Positions 1 through 31,833 of a stretch of DNA of 32,000 bases are shown here, piece by piece. The notes below the pieces were generated by a model. That model was not told the origin of the DNA and ran no database searches. It saw only the letters and a list, made by a program, of their open reading frames with translations. This DNA is from Candidatus Nanopusillus sp. (lineage in GTDB: Archaea > Nanobdellota > Nanobdellia > Nanobdellales > Nanobdellaceae). The stretch spans positions 4,293 through 36,292 of the forward strand of contig JBMSAQ010000026.1 of assembly GCA_049414405.1 (NCBI GenBank), written 5' to 3'. The translations under genes were made by a program, and so were the position numbers. Position 1 is the first letter of the stretch. Each line of letters begins with the position of its first letter.

Positions 1-460
1 TTTCAAAATAAGATTGAAGTTCAGAACCTCTAAATTCTCTTATAATTTCTTTATCATCATATTTTTTATTAAAATCTCCAAAATTTGGTTTTAATAAACC
101 CGCTATTATATTTATTGCTGTACTCTTTCCCATTCCATTTCTTCCAATTATTCCAACAACTTTTCCTTCCTTAATTATTGGTAATCTATACAATCTAAAT
201 GTGTTTGGACCATATTGAAATACTGGTCTCTCATCCGGCTCTTTTGTCAAATTTATAATTATTATTGCATTAAATGGGCATCTCTTTACACATATGCCAC
301 ATCCGATACACAAAGATTCATCAATAGATGGTTTTTTATCTTGTAAAATATTAAATATTTTTAAATTGTTTTTTTGAACTGGACATACTTTCATACATAT
401 ATAATCACATTTTTCAGGAGCCTTACATCTATCTCTATCAATTACTGCAATTCTTTTCAT
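1..460 (-). CDS. abce1: ABCE1 / RNase L inhibitor-type ATPase (Rli1), N-terminal part; gene runs off the window at position 1
   Basis: Reverse translation from the ATG at 458-460 reads MKRIAVIDRDRCKAPEKCDYICMKVCPVQKNN...SLCIGCGICVKRCPFNAIIIINL (two ferredoxin-type 4Fe-4S Cys clusters), then Walker A GIIGRNGMGKSTAINIIAG. Absent from the ORF track because it is truncated by the window edge. Its ATG overlaps the upstream TGA (ATGA). Confidence 0.9.
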   Translation of the reverse strand, partial: MKRIAVIDRDRCKAPEKCDYICMKVCPVQKNNLKIFNILQDKKPSIDESLCIGCGICVKRCPFNAIIIINLTKEPDERPVFQYGPNTFRLYRLPIIKEGKVVGIIGRNGMGKSTAINIIAGLLKPNFGDFNKKYDDKEIIREFRGSELQSYFE

Positions 461-2259
461 ACTAATTTAAATTCTATTTTACTTTTATTATTTATAGCTT
501 CCAATATTTCCTGGCCTATTTCAGAATTTAGGTCTAAAACAATTTTTCCTTTTTTATTTATCTTAAATTTTCCAATTAATTTTCCATTTATATATAATTC
601 TACCTCTCTTTTCCTAAATAAATTATTAAACATTATTGTAAGATAATCTTTTGATATTTCATAATCAAAATTTATAATTTCATTTAATTTTTCGACATTT
701 TTTGTTTCAATTCTCAGATTATACTTATCCTTTATACCCATTAAATATCTTTTTTCATTTCTAATAAACCTCTTTTTAAGCTCTTTTGGAATATAAAATG
801 TTATTCCATCATCTAAAACTTCTGCATAAACATTATTATATTTTCTTCCGTATTCTATATTTAACAAATCTTCTAAGAACCTTTGAATTCCGGATTTTTG
901 TCTATATTTTTTAATTGGAACAACCATTATCTCTTCTCCAAAGGTATATATTTCATACTCTAAATCATTTGTTATGAAATCTCTTACTTCAACAACCGGT
1001 CTTGCAAGATCTTCTTCTTTTAAACCATGTGGAATTTTAACAATTAAATTTAAATAGTATACCTTTTCTATCTGTCCTTTATCTATATATATTATTGTAT
1101 CAATTATTTGTGGGATCAAACCAAGTTCTGTCCTAGATAATAGTCTATGAACAATGTCTATTGGTCTTTCGGCATGTGCAACACCAACCATTCCAATTCC
1201 TGCCAGTCTTAAATCTATATATAATTTAAAGTCTCTGGTATCTCTCATTTCATCGAATATTACATAATCTGGCCTTGATAATAATAATATATCATGTATT
1301 TCTTCATCTGTAGAATAATTTTTTGAGTATTGAACAATATCTGTGGATAATATTAAATCTCTTGGAGATTCTATTGTTTTAACAATCTTCTTCATACTTA
1401 AGTAATATTCTGCAAGAGCTTGAGCAAATGTTGTTTTTCCAGAACCTGGTTTTCCAACAATTATAATTCCTTCCGATTTCTCTTTTAATCTTTCAACTAT
1501 TTTTTCATTCAAATTGTAATCTTCTATTCTTAATATTTTTGAAGGCTTAACAATTGTTATTTCATATGCATCTGATAGTGGTGGTTTTACAATTACAATT
1601 CTAAAAATTCCTAATTGAATAATCAAACTATTCTTTTTTTCTTGTTCTATGAACGAATCTCTTCTATTTCTAGTAATATATATTATCTTATCGATTAAAT
1701 CTTCTATATCTTTATTTCCATATGTTTTATCTATCTCTTCCAAATACCACTCGCCAGGTTTTCCTCTTTTTCTTTTTACTTTTGTATTTTCGATAATATG
1801 AACAGATATTGTATCATTGGTAAATAAATCTAAAAAGGGTGGGTTCTCTATTGAAAGACCTTCTTTTTCAATAAATAAACAATCAACATTATATACTTTG
1901 GCAGTTTCATATAATACCCTATCGGATGTCAATAATGTAGATTTTGTTTCTCTCGCAATTTTAATAATTAAATAATCTATATATCCATGTTTAGCCAATC
2001 TTATTTGTTCTAATGTTGGTTTTTCTCCCAATATTGTTACCTTATAATTATATTTTTCAGATAATTCTCTAATTTTTTGCAGTTCTTTCAGACCAATCAA
2101 TCCCTTTTCAAGACCTTTATTTGCCTGAGCTTGTAATTCATCAATTACAGGTGTGGGTATTATTACTTCATTAAATAAAATACTACTATTTAATAACGAT
2201 CTTGAAATATATTCGTCAATTACTACAGACGTATCTAATGTTATTTTATCTAATTTCAT
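457..2259 (-). CDS. PIN-domain / PilT-like P-loop ATPase with C-terminal KH-like region (archaeal COG1855 family)
   Basis: N-terminal PIN-like ITLDTSVVIDEY, Walker A GKPGSGKTTFAQALAE, Walker B-like YVIFDEMRD. Size and architecture fit the conserved archaeal PilT-family ATPase. The ORF track starts at a TTG (2262); the first ATG is at 2259. Confidence 0.8.
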   Translation of the reverse strand: MKLDKITLDTSVVIDEYISRSLLNSSILFNEVIIPTPVIDELQAQANKGLEKGLIGLKELQKIRELSEKYNYKVTILGEKPTLEQIRLAKHGYIDYLIIKIARETKSTLLTSDRVLYETAKVYNVDCLFIEKEGLSIENPPFLDLFTNDTISVHIIENTKVKRKRGKPGEWYLEEIDKTYGNKDIEDLIDKIIYITRNRRDSFIEQEKKNSLIIQLGIFRIVIVKPPLSDAYEITIVKPSKILRIEDYNLNEKIVERLKEKSEGIIIVGKPGSGKTTFAQALAEYYLSMKKIVKTIESPRDLILSTDIVQYSKNYSTDEEIHDILLLSRPDYVIFDEMRDTRDFKLYIDLRLAGIGMVGVAHAERPIDIVHRLLSRTELGLIPQIIDTIIYIDKGQIEKVYYLNLIVKIPHGLKEEDLARPVVEVRDFITNDLEYEIYTFGEEIMVVPIKKYRQKSGIQRFLEDLLNIEYGRKYNNVYAEVLDDGITFYIPKELKKRFIRNEKRYLMGIKDKYNLRIETKNVEKLNEIINFDYEISKDYLTIMFNNLFRKREVELYINGKLIGKFKINKKGKIVLDLNSEIGQEILEAINNKSKIEFKLV

Positions 2260-2527
2260 CAATTATTTTATTATATTCTTTATCAAAACCATTTAACCTA
2301 TCTAAAGCCCTCTTTATTGCATCTATTAATATTTCTCTTGGTTTTCTTTTTCCATTGGTTCTTATATATAAGTAAATATCTTTTATTAGAGGATGATTTT
2401 CTTTCCATGCGGCAATTATTACATCTGGATCTTTATCCAATTCTTCTTTTAATAACATAGACATAGTTGCTTTATCATTTTCAAATATTATTTCCATTTC
2501 TGTTTCACTTTCCTTATTTACTTTCAT
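2246..2527 (-). CDS. rpoL: DNA-directed RNA polymerase subunit L (Rpo11)
   Basis: 93 aa. MEIIFEND...LLKEELDKDPDVIIAAWKENHPLIKDIYLYIRTNGKRKPREILIDAIKRALDRL follows the Rpo11/RpoL pattern (HPL..., I.T.G..P.E.L..A). Internal Met-11 (2497) could be the true start. Overlaps the downstream gene by 14 nt. Confidence 0.65.
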   Translation of the reverse strand: MKVNKESETEMEIIFENDKATMSMLLKEELDKDPDVIIAAWKENHPLIKDIYLYIRTNGKRKPREILIDAIKRALDRLNGFDKEYNKIIDEIR

Positions 2528-5761: not shown

Positions 5762-6775
5762 TTATAACATATTTTGAAGACGGTGTTCTCTATAATCTTT
5801 TAAAATTTTCTTTAATCTTTCTCCATCAACGTTTTTTTCTAATACGTTAGACTTTTCCTCATAAAATTTTTCAACAATAACAAAATTTTTTAATTCCTTG
5901 AATCTATCTACAACATAAAATCTTGGAAAAACACTTTTAACTTCTACAAGATTCTCTTTTTTTACAAAAAATTTCACATCATTTCCTTTATAATACGAGA
6001 TGTATTCTTCTTTAAATTCATCTATAAATATTTTATTATAATAAAGTTTATTCAAATATAAAAAAGAAATTTTTGGTATAACATTATCATTAATTTTTAA
6101 TCTTTCTATTAAAATCTTGGATAAAGTATTATAGTCGCTTAATAGATCGATATATTTTTTATTTAATTCTTCTAATGTTTTTTCCTTTTCTTCTTGATAT
6201 TTCTTATTCTTTATGATAATTTTTATTATTTCAATGTCTTTTTTATCTATAAATCTTTTTCTTCTTTTATTATGTTTTTTTGTTTCTTTTTCTTTTTCTT
6301 TTAAATTATTTTTTGCAGACACAACCTCTACTTTTCTATTTTTTAGTATATATCTTAATATTTTAACATATTCTTCTTGGCTTTTAGAAAATCTTTTAGC
6401 CTTTTCAAATATTTCTTTTAATTTTTTTAATGCTTCAATTGCCGATATATAAGCATCAAATTCATGACTATTTTCAAATATATTCTTTAAATTTTCGTTT
6501 TTATAATATTTATTTTTTATTTCTAAACCAATATCTTCCTTAGGCTTATATACACCAATATTTAGTTTTGATGCTATATCTAAAATTGTCTTAGGTATGT
6601 CTTTTTTATCTGTAGCAATGAGTACAACATATTTTAAATTGCTTATATACCTAATTATGTCTTCATTTTGTATATTCTTTCCGCTTATTTTATCAATTAT
6701 ATTTCCATTATCGTCTATAACAACTAACCCTAGATTTGTACCCGGATCTATCCCAACAATTAATGATTTTAGCAT
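5762..6775 (-). CDS. DUF460 / COG2433-like protein (RNase H-fold, YqgF/RuvC-like N-domain plus coiled coil)
   Basis: N-terminus IVGIDPGTNLGLVVIDDNGNII...VVLIATDKKDIPKTILDIASKLNIGVYKPKEDIGLEIK resembles the archaeal DUF460 family as I remember it. The middle is a Lys/Glu-rich predicted coiled coil. Confidence 0.55.
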   Translation of the reverse strand: MLKSLIVGIDPGTNLGLVVIDDNGNIIDKISGKNIQNEDIIRYISNLKYVVLIATDKKDIPKTILDIASKLNIGVYKPKEDIGLEIKNKYYKNENLKNIFENSHEFDAYISAIEALKKLKEIFEKAKRFSKSQEEYVKILRYILKNRKVEVVSAKNNLKEKEKETKKHNKRRKRFIDKKDIEIIKIIIKNKKYQEEKEKTLEELNKKYIDLLSDYNTLSKILIERLKINDNVIPKISFLYLNKLYYNKIFIDEFKEEYISYYKGNDVKFFVKKENLVEVKSVFPRFYVVDRFKELKNFVIVEKFYEEKSNVLEKNVDGERLKKILKDYREHRLQNML

Positions 6776-8492: not shown

Positions 8493-10012
8493 TTACAATA
8501 TTAAAAATAATTCTTTTGGTACGTATAATATATTATCTCTAAATTCTAATTCATAATCTCCGATAACAATTCCATAATTTGATTTATACCTTTTCATACT
8601 ACTTTTTACTTGTTTTTCACCTTTTTGACTTTTTCCAAATTTAACTTCTACAGGTATTATTTTATTATTGTTAGTCTTTATTAAAAAATCTGCACCATTT
8701 TTATTAGGATCGTAAAAAACCTTTATATTTAACATACTATGAGTTATTTGTATTTTATATAATGTTGAAGCTATATATTCTTCAAATAATAACCCAATAT
8801 CTTCACTTTCCTTAAAAGTTCCTAAATCATCTTTTATCATAAATCTTATTGTTGGAGTTATAAAGCAATATTTTCTTTGTTTTCTGCTTATTTTTTCTTC
8901 TCTTCCTAACGGTTTAATAGAAAAAATTAAAGAAGACATTTCTAAATATCTTAAAATATTCTGTACAGAATCTTTATTTATATTTAAACCTTTTGAAATA
9001 TTTTCAATGCTTGTTTTTTCTGCTCCTGCCAAATAATTTATAATTTTTATAGTATCTTCTATACTAGAAGATTTGATGTTCCCGATCTTAGGGATATCTA
9101 AATAAGAGATTTTTTCGATTGTTTCTAGTAGTAATTGTTCAGAATCTTTTTTATATAATGCTGTAAAAGGAAAACCCCTAAATTTTAGGAAATCTTCAAT
9201 TTCAAATGAATATAATTTTATTTTTTTATAGAGTTTTGAGATTTCAATATTATTAAAAAATTCTTTAGGAAATTCAGGAATAAATGTATCGTTATTTAAT
9301 AATTTTAGTATTTTCTTTTTAAGTATTGCGGTTTTATGATATTCATCCGACTTTTTTAATATTTTCAAATATTCAATAAAGCTTAAAGGAAATAAATATT
9401 CTTTTTTAGCCCTTCTTGCCAAATCTGCACCAGTTTCTTTTTTTAATTCTAATGCGGAGGAACCCGTGGCAATTATAAATATATTTGGATATTCATCATA
9501 AATAATTTTTAATGTTAAAGCCCAATTTGGATTATGGTTTACCTCATCTAATAATAAAAATACGGATTTTTTAGAGGTTGCTAAATCTTCAGATAAAATC
9601 TTAGATTCATAGACTTCTATACAAGACATTAAATCAGAATTGAGACTTTTTAATTTGTCTATAGATATAAACAGTATTCTTTCTCTAAATATATTCTTTT
9701 TTTGAATTAAATACAAATATATTTGATATAATAACGTCGTCTTACATGTTCCTCTTAATCCCGGTATGATAATTAATCTATTAATTTTTTCTTTTTTTCA
9801 AGAAAATTATCTATGTGGTTTTTTATTCTAGAAAAAATATGTCTTGTTGGAAGAGGTTTATCATTAGGGTCTGTGGTATACTTTAAAGCCAACTTTTCTG
9901 TATACAGTATTCTTTTTTTTAGGTAGGTTTTTAGTATATCAATATCTATGATATTGTAATAACATTTAATATTATAAATATTGTTATGTGTCATAATAAT
10001 CGGTATTAACAC
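8493..10012 (-). pseudogene. COG1373-type AAA+ ATPase (DUF4143 family), split by a 1-nt frameshift in an A7-G-A6 tract
   Basis: ORF 9773..10012 ends ...RHIFSRIKNHIDNFLEKKKKLID*. In the next frame the sequence continues KKEKINRLIIIPGLRGTCKTTLLYQIY and runs straight into the 407-aa ORF (8493..9716, which has only a TTG start). The P-loop therefore lies between the two tracked ORFs. The Walker A reads GLRGTCKT (Cys where the invariant Gly of GK[ST] should be). Confidence 0.6.
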
Positions 10013-15582: not shown

Positions 15583-15655
15583 GGTCCGGGGCGGGATTTG
15601 AACCCGCGATCTTCGGGTCCACAGCCCGACGCCTTACCACTAGGCTACCCGGACC
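15583..15655 (-). tRNA. tRNA-His (GUG) with genome-encoded G-1
   Basis: Manual cloverleaf, 73 nt: G(-1)-GUCCGGG-UA-GCCU-AGUGGUA-AGGC-G-UCGGG-CUGUGGA-CCCGA-AGAUC-GCGGG-UUCAAAU-CCCGC-CCCGGAC-C. The 3' end abuts the NurA stop codon. Confidence 0.9.
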
Positions 15656-15684: not shown

Positions 15685-16851
15685 TTAACCAATATAAATT
15701 AAAGGCATTACACCATTTGGAGGATATGCTCTAGCTACTACCCATTGTACATATTGAAGTGATGTATAGCCACTGGTTCCTGCACTTATTTGTAATGTAC
15801 CATATTGGAAAGGATTATAGTTTAAATTATAATATGTATAATTTCCATAATTTGGATTATATGATAAATGATACATGTTTAATAAAGTTAGTGGAACCCA
15901 TACTTGATTAGAATTATAAATATAGTATCCTGCTTGTGCATATGTCAAATTAACTATTAAATATGAATAAATAGTTCCTGCATTTGGTGGGAAATATGTA
16001 TAATTCAAATATTGATAAGTTACTGCGGATTTTAACATTGTTGCTCTGCTTAGGGGTGGATAAGTACCGCCCCAATACTGAAATTGTACATATGTAGATA
16101 AATTAGATGTTGTTGTAGCACCACCACATGTAGTATAACTTCCTCCTGTTATATTTGTCCCACCGCAGCCACTAGAAACTATGGGAGATGCAATACCACC
16201 AGCAAAAAATTGTTGATTTGTATTTCCAAATAATGCTATTACATTTGCATCTGCACTAAGTGTATGATACCACACTTCCTCAACAATTAAAGGTATTAAA
16301 GGAATATTCCAATTGTTTGGGGGTAAAATATAAGTACCCTGATAATAATTATTTGTCATTTGAATACCATTTGGAGTTGCTGTAGGGGAAAATGATCCAT
16401 AAAAAATATATCCGATCCATCCATCCATTGTATTATTAAAATATCCATATACTATAAATACATATTTTCCATTATCATATTGTCTAGAAGGATCTACATT
16501 TGGAGAAACACCTACATATGGATAATATTGTTGATAATAATTTGAAGAACTATTTCCTATATACATGTATATAGTTACATTACTATTTGCAGGAATACCA
16601 CTATCTAATTTTACCCACCAAATTTTACAATATATACTTCCATTTATTAATTGACCTAAATACCATGAATATATATCTGGAGTACTATTACAGGTTGTAG
16701 TAAAATATACATTAGATCCATTACTATTAATTAAATTAAATAAAGTTACATTGTTTACATAAGCAAAATGGGGACCTATATTTATACTTCCATTACATAT
16801 TGCTATTTGTTGTTGGAATGGTGCAGGTGTTGGGATATTTTGAGTATTGTA
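15685..16851. repeat. Dispersed direct repeat, copy A (partner 27240..28346)
   Basis: By-eye alignment of 16561-16820 against 28056-28315 gives 20 mismatches in 260 nt. Collinear similarity runs from the stop codon to the YNTQNIP junction. Confidence 0.85.
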
Positions 16852-17382
16852 TAATATTAAAGTTAAATAAGATGGTTGGCAGATAAAGGTACTTGAAGTA
16901 GAATCTGATATATTAAAGACAATTGGTGGTTGAAAATAGTTAATTAAAGGATTTGAAATATATTCTATATTAAATGATCCAATTATATTATTAGCTATCC
17001 CAACTTCTAATTTATAATTTCCATTTTGATTTGGAGGGGTTTGGGATAAATTTGCAACAACAATTAATAGACCATTATCATATGGATTTACAATCGATCC
17101 ATTCGAATTATAAGGATAAACTTTTACTAATCTGCCATTTAGAATTGCAAATACTTGAGAATAATTAACAGGTTCTGAAGGTTTTACATATGCATATAAA
17201 GTATCATTTGCTATAAAGTAATCAAGTAATTGGAAATTTAACTTTATAGATTTTGAAATTTCCTGCCCAGTTGGATTTATTATATTTAAATTGGGAGAAA
17301 TTATATTATATATTGTTATAGTAACAAAAGCGCCAATCACTAATAATAGTAATGCTGTAACTATCTCAGATTGTAATCTCAT
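15685..17382 (-). CDS. Large surface (glyco)protein, paralog A: ArlF/G-like N-terminal helix plus beta region fused to a ~390-aa Tyr/Trp/Asn-rich domain
   Basis: N-terminus MRLQSEIVTALLLLVIGAFVTITIY. About 18 N-x-S/T sequons by hand count. From residue 178 (YNTQNIPTPAPFQQQIAICNG...) to the C-terminus it is homologous to 27240..28631. Third gene of a tightly packed operon. Confidence 0.7.
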   Translation of the reverse strand: MRLQSEIVTALLLLVIGAFVTITIYNIISPNLNIINPTGQEISKSIKLNFQLLDYFIANDTLYAYVKPSEPVNYSQVFAILNGRLVKVYPYNSNGSIVNPYDNGLLIVVANLSQTPPNQNGNYKLEVGIANNIIGSFNIEYISNPLINYFQPPIVFNISDSTSSTFICQPSYLTLILYNTQNIPTPAPFQQQIAICNGSINIGPHFAYVNNVTLFNLINSNGSNVYFTTTCNSTPDIYSWYLGQLINGSIYCKIWWVKLDSGIPANSNVTIYMYIGNSSSNYYQQYYPYVGVSPNVDPSRQYDNGKYVFIVYGYFNNTMDGWIGYIFYGSFSPTATPNGIQMTNNYYQGTYILPPNNWNIPLIPLIVEEVWYHTLSADANVIALFGNTNQQFFAGGIASPIVSSGCGGTNITGGSYTTCGGATTTSNLSTYVQFQYWGGTYPPLSRATMLKSAVTYQYLNYTYFPPNAGTIYSYLIVNLTYAQAGYYIYNSNQVWVPLTLLNMYHLSYNPNYGNYTYYNLNYNPFQYGTLQISAGTSGYTSLQYVQWVVARAYPPNGVMPLIYIG

Positions 17383-17392
17383 ATTATATTAA

Positions 17393-17839
17393 TTAACTAG
17401 CATATATTAAAGTTTGAAACTTAACCCCATAACAAGATACCAGTATTATATAATTCCATGAATTGTTTACTAAATAACTATTATTAAAATATATTGTTGC
17501 ATTTTCACCTGGTAAAAATAGATTTGATGGATACAAATAATTTATAGAATAATTAAAAGGGGAAAAATAACCATTAACATATAATTGAAAACATGACAGA
17601 TCTAATGCTTTATTTCCGTTATTATAAATAATTAAATATGGATTTGAATAGTTTGTTTGATTATTTAAAAATTTTATATTTTCTCCGACAATATTTCTTA
17701 TTTGGTTAGCTACTGAATTTGCAGTATAATAAAAATTCCTATAATAATTATCTAAAATTAAATATAAAACAATTGCAGAAATAATAAAAATGACAAATCC
17801 AACGATTGCTCCAACAATTGATCCTAAATTGGATTTCAT
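17393..17839 (-). CDS. ArlF/ArlG (FlaF/FlaG)-like membrane-anchored protein
   Basis: MKSNLGSIVGAIVGFVIFIISAIVLYLIL helix, then a beta-rich region with YLIIYNNGNKALDLSCFQLYVNGYF (the N.G...l....l.v.G pattern of FlaF/FlaG). The first ATG (17839) forms an ATGA overlap with the upstream stop. The ORF track extends to a GTG at 17851. Confidence 0.55.
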   Translation of the reverse strand: MKSNLGSIVGAIVGFVIFIISAIVLYLILDNYYRNFYYTANSVANQIRNIVGENIKFLNNQTNYSNPYLIIYNNGNKALDLSCFQLYVNGYFSPFNYSINYLYPSNLFLPGENATIYFNNSYLVNNSWNYIILVSCYGVKFQTLIYAS

Positions 17840-18315
17840 ACTACTGTACACGTACTCGCGGTTCTATTAACATATATCAAATTCTGTGTATATGCTCCAG
17901 TAGATGCCACAATCTTTACTTGATAAAAGTTTGTTGTTACAGAAATATTTGTAACAATTACAATTGTGTCATAAGGCCCCCAAGCCGGAGTGCCAGTATA
18001 ACTGTTTGCAATATAAATTCTTGTATTATTTATTAATACCCCATTAATAAACAATAATGTTAAATTTTGATTTAATACTATATTCCCTCTATTTGTTACA
18101 TAGAAATATAATAAATTTGTTGTATTGTTATATGCACAAGAATCTAATGTAATGTAAGTATTTAATTGATTTTGTAATGATTGGGAGTTTGCAATTGCAG
18201 CATTACTTATTTCATTTAAACTATTATATGCAGTAGAAATAAATATATAAGCAGCAATGCCAGCAACTATAAATAATATGATTTCTACAAGAATTGTTCC
18301 AAATTGGTTTTTCAT
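17836..18315 (-). CDS. ArlF/ArlG (FlaF/FlaG)-like membrane-anchored protein
   Basis: MKNQFGTILVEIILFIVAGIAAYIFISTAY (pilin/archaellin-like N-terminus, Glu five residues after the Gly), then LLYFYVTNRGNIVLNQNLTLLFINGVLINNT. 159 aa, the size of FlaF/FlaG. Several N-x-S/T sequons. Confidence 0.55.
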   Translation of the reverse strand: MKNQFGTILVEIILFIVAGIAAYIFISTAYNSLNEISNAAIANSQSLQNQLNTYITLDSCAYNNTTNLLYFYVTNRGNIVLNQNLTLLFINGVLINNTRIYIANSYTGTPAWGPYDTIVIVTNISVTTNFYQVKIVASTGAYTQNLIYVNRTASTCTVV

Positions 18316-18346
18316 TAAAAATTATGATCTATTAAAAAATATAAAT

Positions 18347-19162
18347 CTATTCTACTAATTCGTATCCGTCAATACCTCTTTCATTTATAATTTTTTTCCA
18401 TTCTAACATTCTTTCTTGTCTTTTTACCTCAAGTTCACAAACTTTGTCTATTATTTTTAAATTCTGTATACCCTTTATTTCAACTTTTTCTCCCCCTTCT
18501 ATTGATATATTTACATCCTGTCTAATAGTTCCCAACCCTCTTTTTACCTTTCCGGTTAATCTTAATATTAATCCAATATATTCAGCAACTTCCTTTACCT
18601 CTTTCGGATCTTTTAAATCAGGACCCGTAGATATTTCTATTAATGGTATTCCCAATCTATCCAATCTATAAATTATATAATCTTCTCCTTCTTCAATTTT
18701 CCTTGCAGCATCTTCTTCAATACACATTGTTGCAATGCTTATCTTTTTATCTTTATATTTTAATTCCCCATTTAATGACAATAGCAATGTTCTTTGAAAA
18801 CCAGATGTATTTGACCCATCTATAACAATTTTTCTCATAACTTGTAGAACTCTTGGGATATACATATTAAAAAAAGTCGAAATTAATATGCCAAATTTTA
18901 ATGTTTCAATATTTATTAAATGTGGTGGTTCTTCATCCAGTTCAACTAAACAAGAACAATCTTTAGAATACTCATAGATATATTTTTTATCTTTTAAAGT
19001 TTCGTATTCTGCTGCAATATCTTTTTTTCCAATTTCGCTCAATGTTGCTCTTAATTTTCTTTTAATTCTATAATCATGTTTATCACTTAAATTTGTAGGA
19101 CAATTACAAAATAGCTTTTCTTTTGTATCAATTTGTTGATGGATCTCCAATCCAGCAATCAT
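18347..19162 (-). CDS. gatE: Glu-tRNA(Gln) amidotransferase subunit E (GatE), N-terminal ~270 residues only (split gene or remnant)
   Basis: MIAGLEIHQQIDTKEKLFCNCPT..., GFQRTLLLSLNG, GTIRQDVNISIEGGEKVEIKGIQNLKIIDKVCELEVKRQ are the GatE/GatB cradle-domain blocks. Full-length GatE is about 600+ aa. The next gene starts 31 nt downstream, leaving no room for the rest. Confidence 0.75.
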   Translation of the reverse strand: MIAGLEIHQQIDTKEKLFCNCPTNLSDKHDYRIKRKLRATLSEIGKKDIAAEYETLKDKKYIYEYSKDCSCLVELDEEPPHLINIETLKFGILISTFFNMYIPRVLQVMRKIVIDGSNTSGFQRTLLLSLNGELKYKDKKISIATMCIEEDAARKIEEGEDYIIYRLDRLGIPLIEISTGPDLKDPKEVKEVAEYIGLILRLTGKVKRGLGTIRQDVNISIEGGEKVEIKGIQNLKIIDKVCELEVKRQERMLEWKKIINERGIDGYELVE

Positions 19163-22314: not shown

Positions 22315-25300
22315 ATGAGTGATGAGAGATTTATAAAAGAGGTTTTTCGTGGAAAAAAGGAAGAAGAAATTGTTTTAGGACAAAAAAATCATAAAATAAA
22401 AAAAGTTATTAAAAGAGACGGAAGAATTGTGGACTTTGACCCTGAAAGAATAAAATATGCTATAGAAAGAGCAATGAAAGCTGTTGGTGCTTATGATAAA
22501 GAAAAATTAGAAAAAATTGTTGATTATATAATAAAAGTATTAGAGGAAAAATATGATGATATAAAATATCCAACTGTTGAAGAAATTCAAGATATTGTCG
22601 AATTATCTTTATTAAAATTTGATTTATATGATGTTGCCAAAGCATATATTTCCTATAGAAAAGAAAAGGAAAAAATAAGGGAAGAAAAGAAGAATTTACT
22701 GGGAAAATTCTATGAAGAAGAAGTTGCAAAAAGATTTTCTGTTAATTCAATTAGATTAATGGTAAATAGATATTTATTAAGGAATGAGAATAAAGAATTA
22801 ATAGAGGGTCCAAAACAAATGTTTGAAAGAGTTGCTGCATTAATCATAATACCAGATTTATTATATGATGAAAGAATATATGATAAGGAAGGAAAGCAAA
22901 GAATACATCCAAAGGAAGAATTTGACTTCGTAAAAAATGAAAATAAATATGGATTACCAATAAAAGATCCTAAATTTAAATGGAATAGATACCATTTAGA
23001 AAGAATGAAATATTTGTATGATTATTTAAATGAAAGAGGTCATATGAAAGTTTCATGGTCAGAATTTATAAAAATGTTAGAAAATGGAGAATTTGACAAA
23101 TATTACGAAAATTTCTACCAATATTATGATTTAATGGCAAGTAAAAGATTTATGCCAAATTCTCCAACATTATTTAACGCGGGTGCTGTCTTAGGACAGT
23201 TATCTGCATGTTTTGTATTGGATATTGATGACGATATGGAATCAATAATGAAATCTGCAACAGAAGCAGCTTTAATATTTAAATCAGGGGGCGGAATTGG
23301 AATAAATTATTCAAAATTAAGACCCGAGGGCGATGTTGTTGCATCTACTGGTGGTATTGCTTCAGGTCCAGTTTCATTTATGAAAATCATAGACACAATT
23401 ACAGATGTGGTAAAACAAGGGGGAAAGAGAAGGGGAGCAAACATGGGTATTTTAGAATCCTGGCATCCGGAAATATTTAAATTTATTCATTTAAAGGAAA
23501 AAGAAGGTGTATTAGAAAACTTTAATATATCTATAATGTTTGAGCCAACATTTTGGGAATATTTTGAAAATAAAAAAGAATATCCTTTAATTAATCCAAG
23601 ATTATTAAGGAGATATAATTTACCTTTTCCAGGAGATCCAAATTTTGATATAAATAAAGTACCAAAGGAAGCAATTGTTGGATATGTAAATCCTGAAAGA
23701 ATACTACAAGAAGCATCATATGTTGCATGGGAAAAAGGAGATCCCGGATGCTTGTTTATGGATAATATAAATAGAAGAAATGTTCAATATAAATATAGAG
23801 GACCAATTAGAGCTACTAATCCATGTGTAACTGGAGATACTAGAATTTTAACTCCGTATGGTCTTTTGAGGGCCGAAACCCTACTTTATTTAAACAATGA
23901 AAATGGTAGCGATATCAACAATATAGAGCTTTTAGTAGATGGAGAAGGTGAAATTTTGTATACAACAGTTCATGGAAAAACATTGAGTGTAAGTTCTCCA
24001 ATATTGGTTGATGCAAAAGTTTGGAAAGTTGGATTTAAACCAACCGTTAAATTAATTTTAGAAAATGGAATGGAGATTGAAGTAACTGAAGATCATAAAA
24101 TACTCACAAAAGATGGCTGGATAGAAGCAAAATATGCTGAAGGAAAGGAAGTAAAGATAGCAAGAATTGATATTGATAAGTTAGAAAACTATGGATTAAA
24201 AGAAATTGATGGAATAAAATTAGATAGAGAATTGGGATTTTTATTAGGATGGTTGGTTGGAGACGGATATGTTGGGGAAAAAGTGTTCTTCTATTTTAAT
24301 ACTAAAACTGAAAAAGAAGTTTCCGAATATGTAAAAAAATTGCTTGAAAAGAAATTTGGAGTAAATGTTAGTAGGTTCGAAAGAAATAATGAGATATGGA
24401 TTTATGTTGGTAAGAAGGAAGTTGTTGAAATTTTCAAAAAACTAATGAGAAGGAAAACAAGCTTGCCAGAAATTGTTTTCCTAGCAAATTCGGAATTTGT
24501 TAAAGGATTTTTGAGTGGGTTGTTTTCAGCGGACGGATATTTCGATAAAGACAGAGCAATAAGATTAATATCATCTAATAAAGATTTGTTGAAGGAAACC
24601 CAACTTTTACTAACTTTATTCGGTATATTTTCAAAGATTTATGAGAGACCATATAAGAGAAAGTTTGAGTATATTACTGTAAATGGTGAAAGAAAAGAAT
24701 ATGAAACTAGAGGTTATTTTGAGCTTATAATCAAAAACTATAGTAGGAAAATTTTTGAAGAAAAGATAAAATTGATAGATTATAAAAACAAAAAGCTTCC
24801 GGATGGACTAAAGAAAACTAAAATAGATGATAATTATGTTAAAATTTTAAGAGTAGAATATGTTGGTGAAAAATTGGTTTATGATTTTAGTGTTCCGGGA
24901 TTTAATAGATATATTTCTAACGGAATAATAAGTCACAATTGTGGAGAACAACCTTTATATCCTTATGAATCTTGTAATTTGGGATCAATTAATCTATATG
25001 CTTTGGTTGAATTTAAAGATGGAAAGGTTGAATTTAATTGGAATAAATATATTGAAACAATAAAATGGGCTTATAAATTTTTAGATAATGTAATAGATGT
25101 AAATAAATATCCAATAAAGGAAATTGAAGAAGCTTCGAAAGCAGTAAGAAGAATTGGACTTGGATTTATGGGATTGGCGGATATGTTATATGCATTGGGA
25201 ATTCCATATACATCTGAAGAAGGATATAAATTACTAATGAAAATAACAGAATATTTAACATATTATTCAATGTTAGAATCTGTTGAAAGGGCAAAAACAA

Positions 25301-26217
25301 GGGGTAAATTCGATAAATATGATCAAACAACATATAAAGATGGTAAATTACCTGTAGAAGGATATTATCATAGAGAGTTATGGACATTAGATTGGGAATA
25401 TTTGAAAGAACAAATAATGAAATATGGAATAAGAAATATTGAAGTTACTTCAATTGCCCCTACAGGTTCTATATCAATGTTAGCGGATACATCTTCAGGT
25501 ATTGAACCACAATATTCTTTAGTATATGAAAAAAGAGTAACTGCTGGTATATATTTTTATGTAGATCCAGAATTAGAAAGGCAATTGAGAGAAAGAGGAC
25601 TATATAATAATGATATATTAAAGAAAATATCTGATAATGGTGGAAGTTTATTGGGAATAAAAGAGATCCCAGATGATTTGAAAGCAATATTCTTAACAGC
25701 ATTAGATATGCCATGGTGGGATCATATAAGAGCACAGGCAGTTGCTCAAATATGGATAACTACATCAATATCAAAGACAATAAATATGCCAAATTGGGTT
25801 CAGCCAGATGACGTATATTATTCATACTTATTAGCATATAAGATGGGATGTAAAGGAATTACAATATATAGAGATGGATCAAAATCTGTACAAGTATATG
25901 TAGCTCCTGCTGAAGCAAGTAAGGCAAGATTTGCAGATTACTTTAGACTAATTAGAGAAGGAAAAATAAATAATAAAACAGTTGAAATATTAAAACAATA
26001 TGGAATAAAGTTACCAAACTGGTATTATGAATTAAATAACAACGTTGAGATACCAAAAGTAAAATTGAATGTAAACATTAATAATACATTAAGGGTTGAA
26101 GAAAATGGAAATAATAAAATTGAGAAATGTCCTGTATGTGGATCTATGAGGTTAAAACATCAAGCAGGTTGTATTACATGTATAGATTGTGGATGGTCGG
26201 AATGTATAATTGCTTAA
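22315..26217 (+). CDS. nrdJ: Ribonucleotide reductase, class II (B12-dependent) type, with N-terminal ATP-cone, one intein and a C-terminal Cys4 zinc ribbon
   Basis: ATP-cone [35 protein letters not shown]. Active-site TNP-[intein][19 protein letters not shown]. [23 protein letters not shown]-terminal CPVCGS...CITCIDCG. The class II call rests on the archaeal-type layout and Zn-ribbon tail (inference). Confidence 0.9.
23824..24939 (+). mobile_element. Intein (372 aa) with LAGLIDADG homing-endonuclease domain, inserted in the RNR active-site NPCGE motif
   Basis: Starts with Cys ([13 protein letters not shown], block A). Block [14 protein letters not shown]. Two LAGLIDADG motifs, [14 protein letters not shown] and [12 protein letters not shown]. 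Blocks [12 protein letters not shown]...NGIISHN, followed by the +1 Cys (CGEQ). In frame: 1116 nt. Confidence 0.9.
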
Positions 26218-27239: not shown

Positions 27240-28346
27240 CTAATCAATGTAAATTGAAGGCATTGCACCATTTGGAGGATATGCCCTAGCAATTACCCAT
27301 TGTACGTATTGATATGAATAAGCACCACTAGTTCCAGCACTTATTTGTAATGTACCATATTGGAATGGATTATAATTTAAATCAGACCATACATATCCAT
27401 CCCAATTTATCTTATATGTATTTAATAATGTTAAAGGTATCCATGCATAACCATAATAACTATATATATAATATCCTGCTTCTGCATATGTTGAATTAAC
27501 TATTAAATATGAATAAACAGTTCTTCCATATGGTGAGAAATACACATAATATAAATATTGGTTAGTTACTGCAGATTTTAACATAGCCGCTTTACTATCG
27601 GGTGGATCAGATCCATAATAATACTCAAATTGCACAAATGTAGATAAATTGGGTGCGGGTGTAGCACCACCATAAGTAGATCCAATCGTACCAGCTAAAA
27701 GTTGCTGGCTCATATTTCCAAACAATGCTATTACATTTGCATCCGCGCCCTTAGTATGATACCAAGCTTCTTCAACAATTAAAGGTATTAAAGGTATATT
27801 CCAATTATTTGGAGGTAAAATATATCTACCTTGATAAGTTTGATCGGCTAACATTTCAATACCATACGGAGTTGCTGTAGGAGACCCTAATCCCGCATAA
27901 ACATATCCAGTCCATCCATCAAATGTATTGTTAAAATATCCATATGCTATGAATACATATTTTCCATTATCATATTGTCTAGATGGAAATACATTTGGAG
28001 AAGCACCAACATATGGATAATATTGTTGATAAAAATTTGAAGAATTATCCCCTATATACATGTATATAGTTACATTACTATTTGCAGGAATACCATTATC
28101 TAATTTTATCCACCAAATCTTACAATATGTACTTCTATTTACTAATTGACCTAAATACCATGAATATATGTCTGGAGTACTATTACAGGTTGTAGTAAAA
28201 TATACATTAGACCCATTTCTATTAATTAAATTAAATAATGTTGGATTATTTACATAAGCAAAATTAGGACCAATATTTATTGTTCCGTTACATATTGCTA
28301 TTTGTTGTTGGAATGGGGATGGTGCAGGAATATTTTGGGTATTATA
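27240..28346. repeat. Dispersed direct repeat, copy B (partner 15685..16851)
   Basis: Same as copy A. Same orientation, about 11.5 kb apart. About 60 nt shorter, mainly because copy A carries a Gly/Thr/Cys-rich insertion. Confidence 0.85.
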
Positions 28347-28631
28347 TATTGTAATTGGAATATATTGATTATATCCTATATTAATATAACTGGAATAATT
28401 GGAATAATTATTTAAATAATTGTTAGAAGTATTTTGATAATTATTAGCACTTGTAGTATTAGAACTTATAATAGTATGTGTTGTAAGATTTTGATAGTTA
28501 TTAGAACTGGTAATATTTGTTGAACTGTTTGTTAAATTTGGCTTATTAAAAAACATATTATATCCAAAATATATACCAACTATTGCAACTATAATTATTA
28601 AAATTATTATTAATAAAGCATTAGATTTCAT
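27240..28631 (-). CDS. Large surface (glyco)protein, paralog B: signal-anchor plus Asn/Ser/Thr/Tyr stalk plus the domain shared with 15685..17382
   Basis: MKSNALLIIILIIIVAIVGIYFGY anchor. Residues ~30-90 are almost only N/S/T/Y/Q. From YNTQNIPAPSPFQQQIAICNG (residue 96) to ...ARAYPPNGAMPSIYID it is collinear with paralog A. About 17 sequons by hand count. Confidence 0.7.
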   Translation of the reverse strand: MKSNALLIIILIIIVAIVGIYFGYNMFFNKPNLTNSSTNITSSNNYQNLTTHTIISSNTTSANNYQNTSNNYLNNYSNYSSYINIGYNQYIPITIYNTQNIPAPSPFQQQIAICNGTINIGPNFAYVNNPTLFNLINRNGSNVYFTTTCNSTPDIYSWYLGQLVNRSTYCKIWWIKLDNGIPANSNVTIYMYIGDNSSNFYQQYYPYVGASPNVFPSRQYDNGKYVFIAYGYFNNTFDGWTGYVYAGLGSPTATPYGIEMLADQTYQGRYILPPNNWNIPLIPLIVEEAWYHTKGADANVIALFGNMSQQLLAGTIGSTYGGATPAPNLSTFVQFEYYYGSDPPDSKAAMLKSAVTNQYLYYVYFSPYGRTVYSYLIVNSTYAEAGYYIYSYYGYAWIPLTLLNTYKINWDGYVWSDLNYNPFQYGTLQISAGTSGAYSYQYVQWVIARAYPPNGAMPSIYID

Positions 28632-31096: not shown

Positions 31097-31492
31097 ATGC
31101 TAGACAGGTTTTTTGAATTATTCGTAATTGTTTTGGTAATATTTTTTGTTACTTTATTATTGATGGAGAAGGTTTCTTATATTTATAATGTTAATGAAAA
31201 ATATCAAATTATATATAATCAATTTATGCATGGGCGGGTTTTGATTAAAGAAATAACAGAGAAATATACTGATAATATTTGTAATTTAACATCAAAAAAT
31301 TTTGATCCAGATATAATGAATAATTTAGCGAGTTTTCCATATGTAATAATATATAAAGATTTAAGTAATACTAGCCAAGAATATATTTTTAGTAATTATA
31401 ATATAACAGATATGCAAAACAATTATATAGCATTTACCAGGGTTTGTCATTATAATGGCTCATTATTTTTAGTTAGTGTATTAGTTCAATGA
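31097..31492 (+). CDS. Small N-terminally anchored, probably extracellular protein (131 aa)
   Basis: MLDRFFELFVIVLVIFFVTLLLM hydrophobic N-terminus, then an Asn/Tyr-rich region with sequons (NLT, NTS, NIT, NGS). ATGA overlap with the next ORF. Confidence 0.5.
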   Translation: MLDRFFELFVIVLVIFFVTLLLMEKVSYIYNVNEKYQIIYNQFMHGRVLIKEITEKYTDNICNLTSKNFDPDIMNNLASFPYVIIYKDLSNTSQEYIFSNYNITDMQNNYIAFTRVCHYNGSLFLVSVLVQ

Positions 31493-31833
31493 GAACCTTT
31501 AGTATAGCAATATTTATCGAATTGGCAGTTGTAATAATGGTTTTATATTTTATTCTAACTTCGACATATTATAGTAGTTTTTATATTAGAGGATATGACA
31601 AAGAAGATTTGTATGCATCATTGATATCAATAAATTATATGCATCTAAATAATACACAACAATTAAATGATAGTTTATATCAAATTGTTACAAATATTTT
31701 ACCATACTATTATGTTGAAATAAATGGACAAGTAGCATTTAACAATATAGATTTAAATGAAGCTGAACAGGGAATCATAACTTTTTATATTATTAATGGC
31801 TCAATAAATTATGTACATATATATTGGAAATGA
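31489..31833 (+). CDS. Small pilin-like/anchored protein (114 aa)
   Basis: MRTFSIAIFIELAVVIMVLYFIL (short basic N-region, Ser, then a hydrophobic stretch with Glu) resembles a class III signal/anchor. Sequons NNT, NDS, NGS. ATGA overlaps on both sides. Confidence 0.5.
   Translation: MRTFSIAIFIELAVVIMVLYFILTSTYYSSFYIRGYDKEDLYASLISINYMHLNNTQQLNDSLYQIVTNILPYYYVEINGQVAFNNIDLNEAEQGIITFYIINGSINYVHIYWK

Follow-up and report, generated by a model that had tools for sequence, protein, structure and literature searches.

In a DNA stretch of 32,000 nucleotides (nt) from Candidatus Nanopusillus sp. (assembly GCA_049414405.1, contig JBMSAQ010000026.1, positions 4,293 to 36,292), here called the window, three genes packed head to tail on the minus strand were analyzed. 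Genes 1 and 2 are identified as the archaellum genes arlF and arlG (flaF and flaG), and gene 3 as encoding an ArlF/G-like protein fused to a DUF2341-like part and a lectin-fold head. The probability of this identification is put at about 0.85; domain identity, topology, operon-like packing, deep conservation of the trio and a gene fusion in a sister lineage are shown directly. The full mechanism proposed below, in which the cell's own envelope serves as the ligand of the lectin head, is offered more tentatively, at somewhat less than even odds. The members of the trio are as follows:

17836..18315, minus strand: gene 1 (ArlF-like), an open reading frame (ORF) of 159 amino acids (aa)
17836..17839, minus strand: ATGA, the overlap of the gene 2 start with the gene 1 stop, read from the sequence and common to relatives
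17393..17839, minus strand: gene 2 (ArlG-like), 148 aa from the ATG or 152 aa from the upstream GTG at 17851
15685..17382, minus strand: gene 3 (anchor and predicted lectin-fold head), 565 aa, in NCBI the hypothetical protein ACO2ON_03480

An earlier note on this DNA had described three head-to-tail minus-strand genes of 159, 148 (or 152) and 565 aa, with an ATGA overlap and a 10-nt gap; all of these are present, the gap between genes 2 and 3 being TTAATATAAT, and every peptide quoted there was found in the proteins.

Gene 1 passes the Pfam cutoff for PF01917 (39.1 bits, cutoff 29.5), and its best NCBIfam model is ArlF (NF052590, 2e-14), with ArlG (NF052591) at 2.7e-7. The gene 1 family profile, searched against 1.84 billion representative proteins, recovered 137 relatives of ~150 aa; 102 of these were aligned, and every one of them hits the ArlF model as well as the ArlG model. 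For gene 2 the only direct family match is to ArlF (E 0.0057). Against the deep ArlF/G profile of 102 proteins, gene 2 reaches 97.3% in hhalign (E 1.9e-11), and without its helix the score is 43.5, versus 10.6 +/- 1.8 for column shuffles. For the gene 2 AlphaFold model (predicted local distance difference test, pLDDT, 79), the best Foldseek matches in the PDB are the Sulfolobus acidocaldarius FlaG 5tuh_B (E 8.5e-5), the FlaF/FlaG complex 5tug_A and FlaF 4p94, with target TM-scores of 0.52-0.59 and root-mean-square deviations of 3.1-4.0 A. Profiles of the three families gave no useful match when compared with PDB sequences. The ArlF/ArlG-like nature claimed for both proteins in the earlier note is thus upheld, for gene 1 by Pfam and NCBIfam and for gene 2 by profile comparison and the FlaG/FlaF structural matches; JGI annotates orthologues of both genes as 'FlaF/FlaG flagellin family'.

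In the 102-sequence ArlF/G alignment the sole invariant columns are N75 and G77 of an N-x-G turn (KNtG), which is kept in gene 1 (NRG) and in gene 2 (NNGN). Each of the three proteins has one N-terminal hydrophobic segment (~3-31; residues 3-31 of gene 1 in a hydrophobicity scan), and a pattern scan found no FlaFind-type class III cleavage motif in genes 1, 2 or 3, which argues for ArlF/G rather than archaellins; an identity as archaellins or pilins was ruled out on this ground. Gly6 is invariant in genes 1 and 2, so N-terminal cleavage may still occur. Gene 1 is tentatively assigned as F and gene 2 as G, because gene 1 scores better on ArlF, the top structural match of gene 2 is FlaG, and the order is the euryarchaeal one, F then G; for gene 2, the choice of G over F draws on gene order and the top structural match only.

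Gene 3 is divided by its structure model and by profile comparison into five parts:

17293..17376, minus strand: residues 3-30, the sole hydrophobic (membrane) helix (Kyte-Doolittle scan; helix 2-28 in the model)
16960..17247, minus strand: residues 46-141, predicted seven-strand beta-sandwich, taken as a divergent ArlF/G domain (model pLDDT ~80; hhalign)
16885..16956, minus strand: residues 143-166, low-confidence linker (pLDDT <50), varying in length and sequence across orthologues
16474..16869, minus strand: residues 172-303, DUF2341-like part (YNTQ..PFQQ..IAICNG ... IWWVKL..IPANSNVTIYMYIGN), from Pfam matches in homologues
15688..16473, minus strand: residues 304-565, variable jelly-roll head, from Foldseek together with the DUF2341-like part (pLDDT mostly 85-95)

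The model (pLDDT 71.5 overall) shows a helix at 2-28, a seven-strand sandwich at ~50-140, a disordered linker at 143-166 and a beta-rich region at 172-552; the structural comparison of the N-domain with ArlF/G was by topology only, that is, a helix and seven strands. The N-domain has no direct match in Pfam or NCBIfam, and no Pilin_N (PF07790) match was found in gene 3. A first hhalign comparison with the ArlF-like family gave 87%, driven largely by the hydrophobic helix, and with shallow profiles the helix-free sandwich scored 16.0, inside the shuffle range (maximum 17.4). The loss of this similarity on removal of the helix and the lack of a Pfam or NCBIfam match favor reading gene 3 as an unrelated surface glycoprotein beside arlF-arlG, whose resemblance to ArlF/G (a helix and an Ig-like sandwich) would be convergent and whose adjacency would be meaningless. 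Deeper profiles speak against that reading: compared with the deep ArlF/G profile, the sandwich without the helix has a score of 33.5 (84%, E 7.9e-6), ~10 standard deviations above 40 shuffles (10.3 +/- 2.3, maximum 16.6), and the full N-domain reaches 95.8% in hhalign (E 7.7e-9). This match is significant only with the deepened ArlF/G profile and with two distant gene 3 orthologues in the query; when profiles of the gene 2 family or of the pilin-type paralogues' sandwich are used instead, the gene 3 sandwich scores at background level. Because the helix-free match lies far beyond the shuffles, the N-domain is accepted as a divergent ArlF/G-family module that appears to have lost the N-x-G turn. 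The opening of gene 3 with an ArlF/G-type helix and a similar strand pattern, as proposed earlier, is therefore borne out by the deep profile comparison and the model topology.

The remainder of gene 3 matches DUF2341 (PF10102) weakly and below threshold (13.8 bits, E 0.085, residues 254-280; cutoff 23.4). The same domain is matched by 9 of 62 aligned members of the head family at E <=0.01 (best 2e-7), and it reaches 85 bits in P0294, a distant syntenic gene 3 orthologue. The last ~240 residues are very confident in the model. With Foldseek, gene 3 has 127 PDB matches at E <=1e-3, and legume lectins, ERGIC-53 or VIP36 account for all of the top 50; for residues ~172-552 these matches have E values of 4e-8 to 2.6e-6 and target TM-scores of ~0.55-0.64 over ~270 aligned columns, at ~12% sequence identity. 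As modeled, the head together with the DUF2341-like part matches the L-type-lectin fold, and the large DUF2341-like, possibly lectin-like domain suspected in the earlier note has its counterpart in the Pfam matches of homologues and in these Foldseek results.

The family of gene 3 residues ~172-565 comprises >333 matches, nearly all of them unnamed metagenome proteins; the named members come from Nanopusillus, Nanobsidianus and Nanopusillaceae. One further member, not mentioned in the earlier note, lies in the window:

27240..28631, minus strand: the 463-aa paralogue ACO2ON_03535, with a plain N-terminal membrane helix, an Asn/Ser/Thr-rich stalk and a DUF2341-like plus lectin head

It is 70% identical to gene 3 residues 172-564 over 395 aa (BLASTP) and 86.5% identical at the DNA level over 661 nt, contains 6.9% charged residues and 18 sequons, and has no Pfam match. 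Across the 62 aligned members the anchors differ: archaeal pilin N-termini (PF07790; MKSISPIIA...) occur in 14 and PF01917 in 8, and some members carry tandem heads. Since other family members in the same genome sit on plain or pilin-type anchors, the retention of the ArlF/G-type anchor at this locus is specific. The proposal that the lectin-headed 'flagellin-like' paralogues are the major archaellins was ruled out, the archaellins of Nst1 being 197 and 283 aa long.

The trio is syntenic in every Nanopusillaceae genome checked, and the same 4-nt overlap and 10-nt gap occur in at least 12 other genomes. It corresponds to MJ1_0772, MJ1_0773 and MJ1_0774 in Nanobdella aerobiophila MJ1 and to YN1_3230, YN1_3240 and a 743-aa third gene in strain YN1; Nanobsidianus stetteri Nst1, with Nst1_194 as the third gene, and many Nanopusillus metagenome-assembled genomes (MAGs) carry it too. 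Orthologues of gene 3 (516-743 aa) hold the same position in all relatives, and the trio persists in lineages in which ArlF is only 34-45% identical and the flanking genes are different. The operon-like organization, from which the earlier note had expected co-transcription, is thus strongly conserved. In a sister lineage the second gene is the 461-aa fusion P0280, in which residues 1-142 share 37% identity with gene 2 (E 1e-18) and residues 192-256 match DUF2341 at 71 bits. An assembly artefact at this locus (L027) was ruled out, since the same 461-462-aa ArlG::DUF2341 protein is found in at least five independent MAGs. Such a 'Rosetta-stone' fusion is an argument for the ArlG-type module and the DUF2341/lectin part acting together as a single physical unit.

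Nanoarchaeal genomes are scrambled, as illustrated by a pilin-type paralogue standing alone among housekeeping genes. This could be taken in favor of gene 3 as an unrelated neighbor, because neighbors in such genomes often mean little; it also gives weight to the tight adjacency of the trio, which is kept across different flanks despite the scrambling. With this adjacency, the recurrence of the ArlG::DUF2341 fusion and the helix-independent profile match against it, an unrelated surface glycoprotein is considered very improbable.

The trio is broken in a few places. In the cultured reference strain N. acidilobi 7A (CP010514; L019, ~6230-6300 and 6580-6600), gene 1 is truncated to 90 aa (Nps_03420) and the frame of gene 2 is broken as well; the breaks are single-base changes in homopolymer runs and could be either sequencing errors or real decay of arlF/arlG in a laboratory strain. 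The third gene is in pieces at L022 2097-3872 (154 + 381 aa) and at L026 7960-8841 (91 + 152 aa), where sister assemblies are intact (591 and 461 aa). The pieces may reflect split genes, pseudogenes or faulty assembly. In the metagenome proteins P0276 (727 aa), P0234 (451 aa) and P0160 (468 aa), an ArlF/G-type module is followed by unrelated large C-terminal regions or by four tandem ArlF/G sandwiches, which indicates that domain fusion onto ArlF/G anchors is not unique to Nanopusillaceae.

The ratio of nonsynonymous to synonymous substitution rates (dN/dS) of the trio is 0.16-0.46, with 0.16-0.22 for gene 1. Because the same trio, overlap and gap recur in at least 12 other genomes and dN/dS is in this range, the three ORFs are regarded as real genes and not as chance ORFs; the 565-aa gene 3 protein is also encoded on two hot-spring metagenome contigs (exact match). 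In composition, the three proteins and the paralogue at 27240-28631 contain 5.5-6.9% charged residues (K+R+D+E; 5.5-6.8% in the three alone), versus 25-43% in 22 of the 24 other scored window ORFs and 11-16% in two small ORFs at 31097-31833. They likewise have 3.2-4.1 sequons per 100 aa, versus <=1.1 in the 22 ORFs. Gene 3 has exactly the 18 sequons that the earlier note gave as a hand count of about 18, versus 9.7 +/- 2.7 in shuffles of the gene 3 protein, and genes 1 and 2 have six each. Low charge and high sequon density fit extracellular proteins of an acidophile, and, taken with the single N-terminal hydrophobic segment, argue for glycosylated, externally exposed, membrane-anchored proteins of such an organism.

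Two features close to the trio bear on the limits of a transcription unit:

18338..18345, minus strand: TATA-box-like element TTTATATT, read from the sequence, 30 nt upstream of the gene 1 ATG
15583..15654, minus strand: tRNA-His, 30 nt downstream of gene 3

The element TTTATATT sits inside the 31-nt spacer that separates the stop of the N-terminal GatE ORF from the gene 1 ATG, a spacer also present in N. acidilobi; judged from its sequence and position, it may serve as the promoter. The T-rich spacer between gene 3 and tRNA-His is likely the end of the transcription unit. The upstream neighbor, which the earlier note called a GatE fragment, is indeed a 271-aa ORF with only the N-terminal part of GatB/GatE (PF02934), but it is conserved in relatives and looks like a fixed split gene: the ORF at 18347-19162 (minus strand) contains GatB_N only, 269-271-aa counterparts exist in MJ1, YN1 and Nst1, and the C-terminal half is not in the window.

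The earlier note had described the three genes as an 'orphan' module. Its observation that no archaellin, ArlH/I/J motor or prepilin peptidase gene is encoded in the window agrees with family scans of the other window ORFs, but the orphan status is an artefact of the window, since the counterparts are the only ArlF/G-like genes reported for relatives that carry arlB, arlD/E and arlH/I/J elsewhere. As no arl motor or filament gene is nearby, the linkage to the archaellum draws on homology and on published data for the relatives. A full archaellum gene set was reported for Nst1, including flaF and flaG (putatively the genes described here), and N. equitans was scored as lacking an archaellum (Podar 2013, PMC3655853). 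FlaF and FlaG are single-copy in all archaellated archaea, Nst1 included (Makarova, Koonin and Albers 2016, PMC4858521). In strain YN1, FlaBDEHIJF are listed (Johnson 2024, PMC11420986), and in MJ1, ArlB (MJ1_0449 and MJ1_0453) and ArlHIJ are encoded, the arlB genes far from MJ1_0772-0774 (Kato 2023 preprint, 10.1101/2023.10.27.564410). The relatives are archaellated, and free cells of N. aerobiophila bear archaella and swim (PMC3655853, PMC11420986, Kato 2023 preprint, PMC11104419). The module is best seen as the arlF-arlG locus of these organisms, apparently parted from the other arl genes by genome scrambling.

MJ1_0772 and MJ1_0773 were, in the Kato 2023 preprint, called 'archaellin-like' and not ArlF/G, and additional filaments were suggested. 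Cryo-electron tomography (cryo-ET) of Nanobdella and YN1 has shown two filament types, the second of which is rough and 15 nm wide, and an attachment organelle. These reports, and the distance of the locus from arlB (MJ1_0449 and MJ1_0453 versus MJ1_0772), would suit a trio that forms or anchors an appendage other than the archaellum, namely the rough 15-nm filament or part of the attachment organelle, with the stator function dispensable or otherwise provided. However, ArlF and ArlG are universal single-copy components of the archaellum (PMC4858521), and no other candidates for them are reported in these small genomes; Nst1, which carries these genes, was scored flaF+ flaG+ and the non-archaellated N. 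equitans provides the counterpart (PMC3655853; gene match putative); and a filament of the type IV pathway is unlikely for proteins without cleavable pilin signals. A separate appendage is therefore judged quite improbable.

On the preferred reading, the arlF-arlG operon, which encodes the periplasmic 'stator' of the archaellum, would have been extended by a third co-transcribed gene. All three products would be monotopic, each with a single N-terminal helix that is not cleaved and, outside the membrane, a beta-sandwich of the ArlF/G family, and in gene 3 a flexible linker would join this anchor module to the DUF2341-like part and the L-type-lectin-fold head. The three ArlF/G-type modules may co-assemble at the base of the archaellum, as FlaG and FlaF do in Sulfolobus, while the lectin head would grip glycans of the cell envelope, the simplest candidate being the heavily glycosylated S-layer of the cell itself. 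Such a grip would supply or supplement the S-layer anchoring that Sulfolobus FlaF, which binds the S-layer (PMC4425475), gets by direct protein contact. We infer the co-assembly of the three proteins, the glycan contact and the S-layer as ligand from this Sulfolobus precedent, that is, from the FlaG/FlaF stator complex and the binding of FlaF to the S-layer.

Several observations weigh against this proposal. Gene 1 remains under the NCBIfam equivalog cutoff (53.9 vs 110 bits). Gene 3 lacks the ArlF/G-invariant N-x-G turn and has KPSEP in its place, so that the N.G pattern described in the earlier note holds for genes 1 and 2 and not for gene 3. Neither in the 32-kb window nor in ~4 kb beyond it did family scans find an arl gene for the motor or the filament. 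The last ~260 aa of gene 3 are only 23-56% identical between relatives whose ArlF proteins are 86-92% identical, and a mosaic head shared with paralogues is more typical of host- or virus-facing proteins than of a housekeeping protein that fastens to the S-layer of its own cell.

The evolution of the head fits a different role. In gene 3 orthologues the N-module is conserved and the head is mosaic: relative to Nst1 and L013, identity is 23-26% over the last ~210-260 aa, where it reaches 86-88% in ArlF and ArlG. In the closest relative (ArlF 92% identical), the head segment has a dS of 0.61 and a dN of 0.28, versus ~0.2-0.3 and ~0.04-0.08 elsewhere, and some gene 3 lineages carry a ~200-aa insertion. 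The identity, dS and dN that differ from segment to segment point to segments with different histories, which indicates recombination or cassette exchange. The head family has at least four copies in this MAG and runs to hundreds in metagenomes of Nanopusillus and Nanobsidianus; the heads of the MAG's paralogues (65-76% identical) are more alike than those of some orthologues, such as the heads in Nst1 and L013. Gene 3 could accordingly be primarily a host-recognition adhesin, a member of a recombining lectin-headed family on an ArlF/G-type anchor that is co-expressed with arlF and arlG, and its lectin would be displayed in the motile, host-seeking stage, either atop an ArlG stalk reaching the S-layer or on the archaellum. 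The pilin N-termini (PF07790) and PF01917 matches in the family favor this, as do three published observations: surface proteins have the highest densities of nonsynonymous single-nucleotide polymorphisms in Nanoarchaeota populations (PMC6142677); MJ1_0179, with a membrane helix, an immunoglobulin (Ig) fold and a concanavalin A (ConA)-type lectin, has already been proposed as a host-recognition factor (Kato preprint); and DUF2341 proteins have been proposed as pilus-tip adhesins (PMC4858521). Yet a plain anchor suffices for display, as in the 463-aa paralogue, and an adhesin role leaves the retention of an ArlF/G-type module, the deep linkage to arlF-arlG and the fusion to ArlG in one lineage without a reason. 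Moreover, incorporation into a filament is not expected for a protein without a class III signal, and the overall dN/dS of the head is <1. A primary adhesin role is thus considered rather unlikely, though the mosaic, paralogue-shared head suits a host-facing adhesin nearly as well as an anchor to the cell's S-layer. The 'host-contact apparatus' envisaged in the earlier note was offered as an inference and is still conjectural; a mosaic, paralogue-shared head fits it.

A further idea concerns the archaellum of Nanobdella aerobiophila, in which, as cryo-ET shows, a proximal segment of 76 nm is 'corrugated' and 'thorns' occur sporadically along the filament. That gene 3 and the pilin-anchored paralogues are the material of this segment and of the thorns is speculative and improbable. 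If it were true, N-modules of the ArlF/G or pilin type would insert into or around the archaellum and interchangeable lectin heads would project outward; the swimming organelle would double as a host-capture device, with a specificity re-assorted by recombination among paralogues.

No essential parts of the archaellum are less well understood than ArlF and ArlG, and the envelopes to which archaea have to fix the stator are very different. A conserved third, lectin-headed ArlF/G subunit and the ArlG::DUF2341 fusion suggest one concrete solution, glycan anchoring. Nanobdellota can now be grown in culture and serve as model ectosymbionts, the decorations on their archaella are unexplained, and the recombining lectin-head family may underlie host specificity. 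Named candidates for testing are MJ1_0772-0774, YN1_3230/3240 with the adjacent third gene, and Nst1_194. Genes 1 and 2 are of a known kind and have annotations already, and gene 3 is 'hypothetical' in databases. In the searchable literature, no mention of MJ1_0774, Nst1_194 or their equivalents was found, nor a published description of an arlF-arlG-(ArlF/G-like::DUF2341-lectin) operon or of an ArlG::DUF2341 fusion.

The surrounding genes of the window (G+C ~25%) are of housekeeping type, including the N-terminal GatE ORF, Memo, HSP20, NOG1, an intein-bearing ribonucleotide reductase, NurA, ribosomal proteins, Cdc6 and four tRNAs. Two overlapping ORFs at 31097-31492 and 31489-31833 (plus strand; 131 and 114 aa) have 16% and 11% charged residues and 2.6-3.1 sequons per 100 aa; the 131-aa ORF has an N-terminal hydrophobic helix, the only Pfam match for the two is a sub-threshold one to 'ocr', and they may be further small surface or pilin-like proteins. 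In the 601-aa protein at 457-2262 (minus strand), a PIN domain is joined by an ATPase region resembling PilT/T2SSE (T2SSE 27.8 bits); the protein is not ArlI, and it adjoins an RLI-type ABC protein just outside the window (L028). The ribonucleotide reductase at 22315-26217 (plus strand, 1300 aa) contains an intein and a LAGLIDADG endonuclease. The YN1 enzyme is 1649 aa long, its ribonucleotide reductase-barrel match being broken by LAGLIDADG and intein domains, and that of MJ1 is 914 aa long and has no intein; an intein in the ribonucleotide reductase is known in Nst1 (Podar 2013, PMC3655853). An AAA_14/DUF4143 ATPase at 8493-9716 (minus strand) is one 407-aa ORF from a TTG start, and the same gene on an ENA contig of the same population (L001 17222-18445) is called as two genes of 280 and 115 aa.

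Among known systems, the closest points of comparison are offered by ArlF and ArlG of Sulfolobus acidocaldarius (PDB 4P94, 4ZBH, 5TUG, 5TUH, 6PBK), which are likewise ~150-aa proteins with an uncleaved N-terminal helix and a beta-sandwich, encoded by adjacent genes. Gene 1 matches the ArlF, ArlG and PF01917 models, and the gene 2 model superposes best on FlaG and FlaF. The role of Sulfolobus FlaF is S-layer binding, a function that the gene 3 lectin head could serve here. Unlike the Sulfolobus genes, the trio is not beside arlH/I/J/B, a third paralogous module is fused to ~390 aa of DUF2341-like and lectin sequence, sequence identity is only ~20%, and the scores are under the NCBIfam equivalog cutoffs.

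The large DUF2341 proteins encoded in type IV pilus loci of archaea (arCOG03508 and others), which have been put forward as PilY1-like tip adhesins (PMC4858521), resemble gene 3 in having a secreted or anchored DUF2341-type domain, in being encoded beside components of the type IV filament family and in an adhesive role that is likewise conjectural. They differ in that the partners of gene 3 are ArlF/G and not pilins, an ATPase or TadC, that its anchor is an ArlF/G-type module, and that its DUF2341 part is highly divergent and under the Pfam threshold. With the L-type lectins (legume lectins, ERGIC-53 and VIP36, of the ConA-like lectin/glucanase superfamily), gene 3 shares the predicted fold of residues ~172-552, but sequence identity is low and gene 3 has an extra DUF2341-like N-terminal elaboration. 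MJ1_0179 of Nanobdella aerobiophila ('lectin-like', proposed for host recognition; 10.1101/2023.10.27.564410) has the same order of N-terminal helix, Ig-like fold and ConA-like lectin, but it lies at a different locus and is not reported next to arlF/arlG; MJ1_0774, the gene 3 orthologue, does not feature in that preprint. Finally, the three proteins are set apart from archaellins and type IV pilins (ArlB; PF07790) by having no class III signal.

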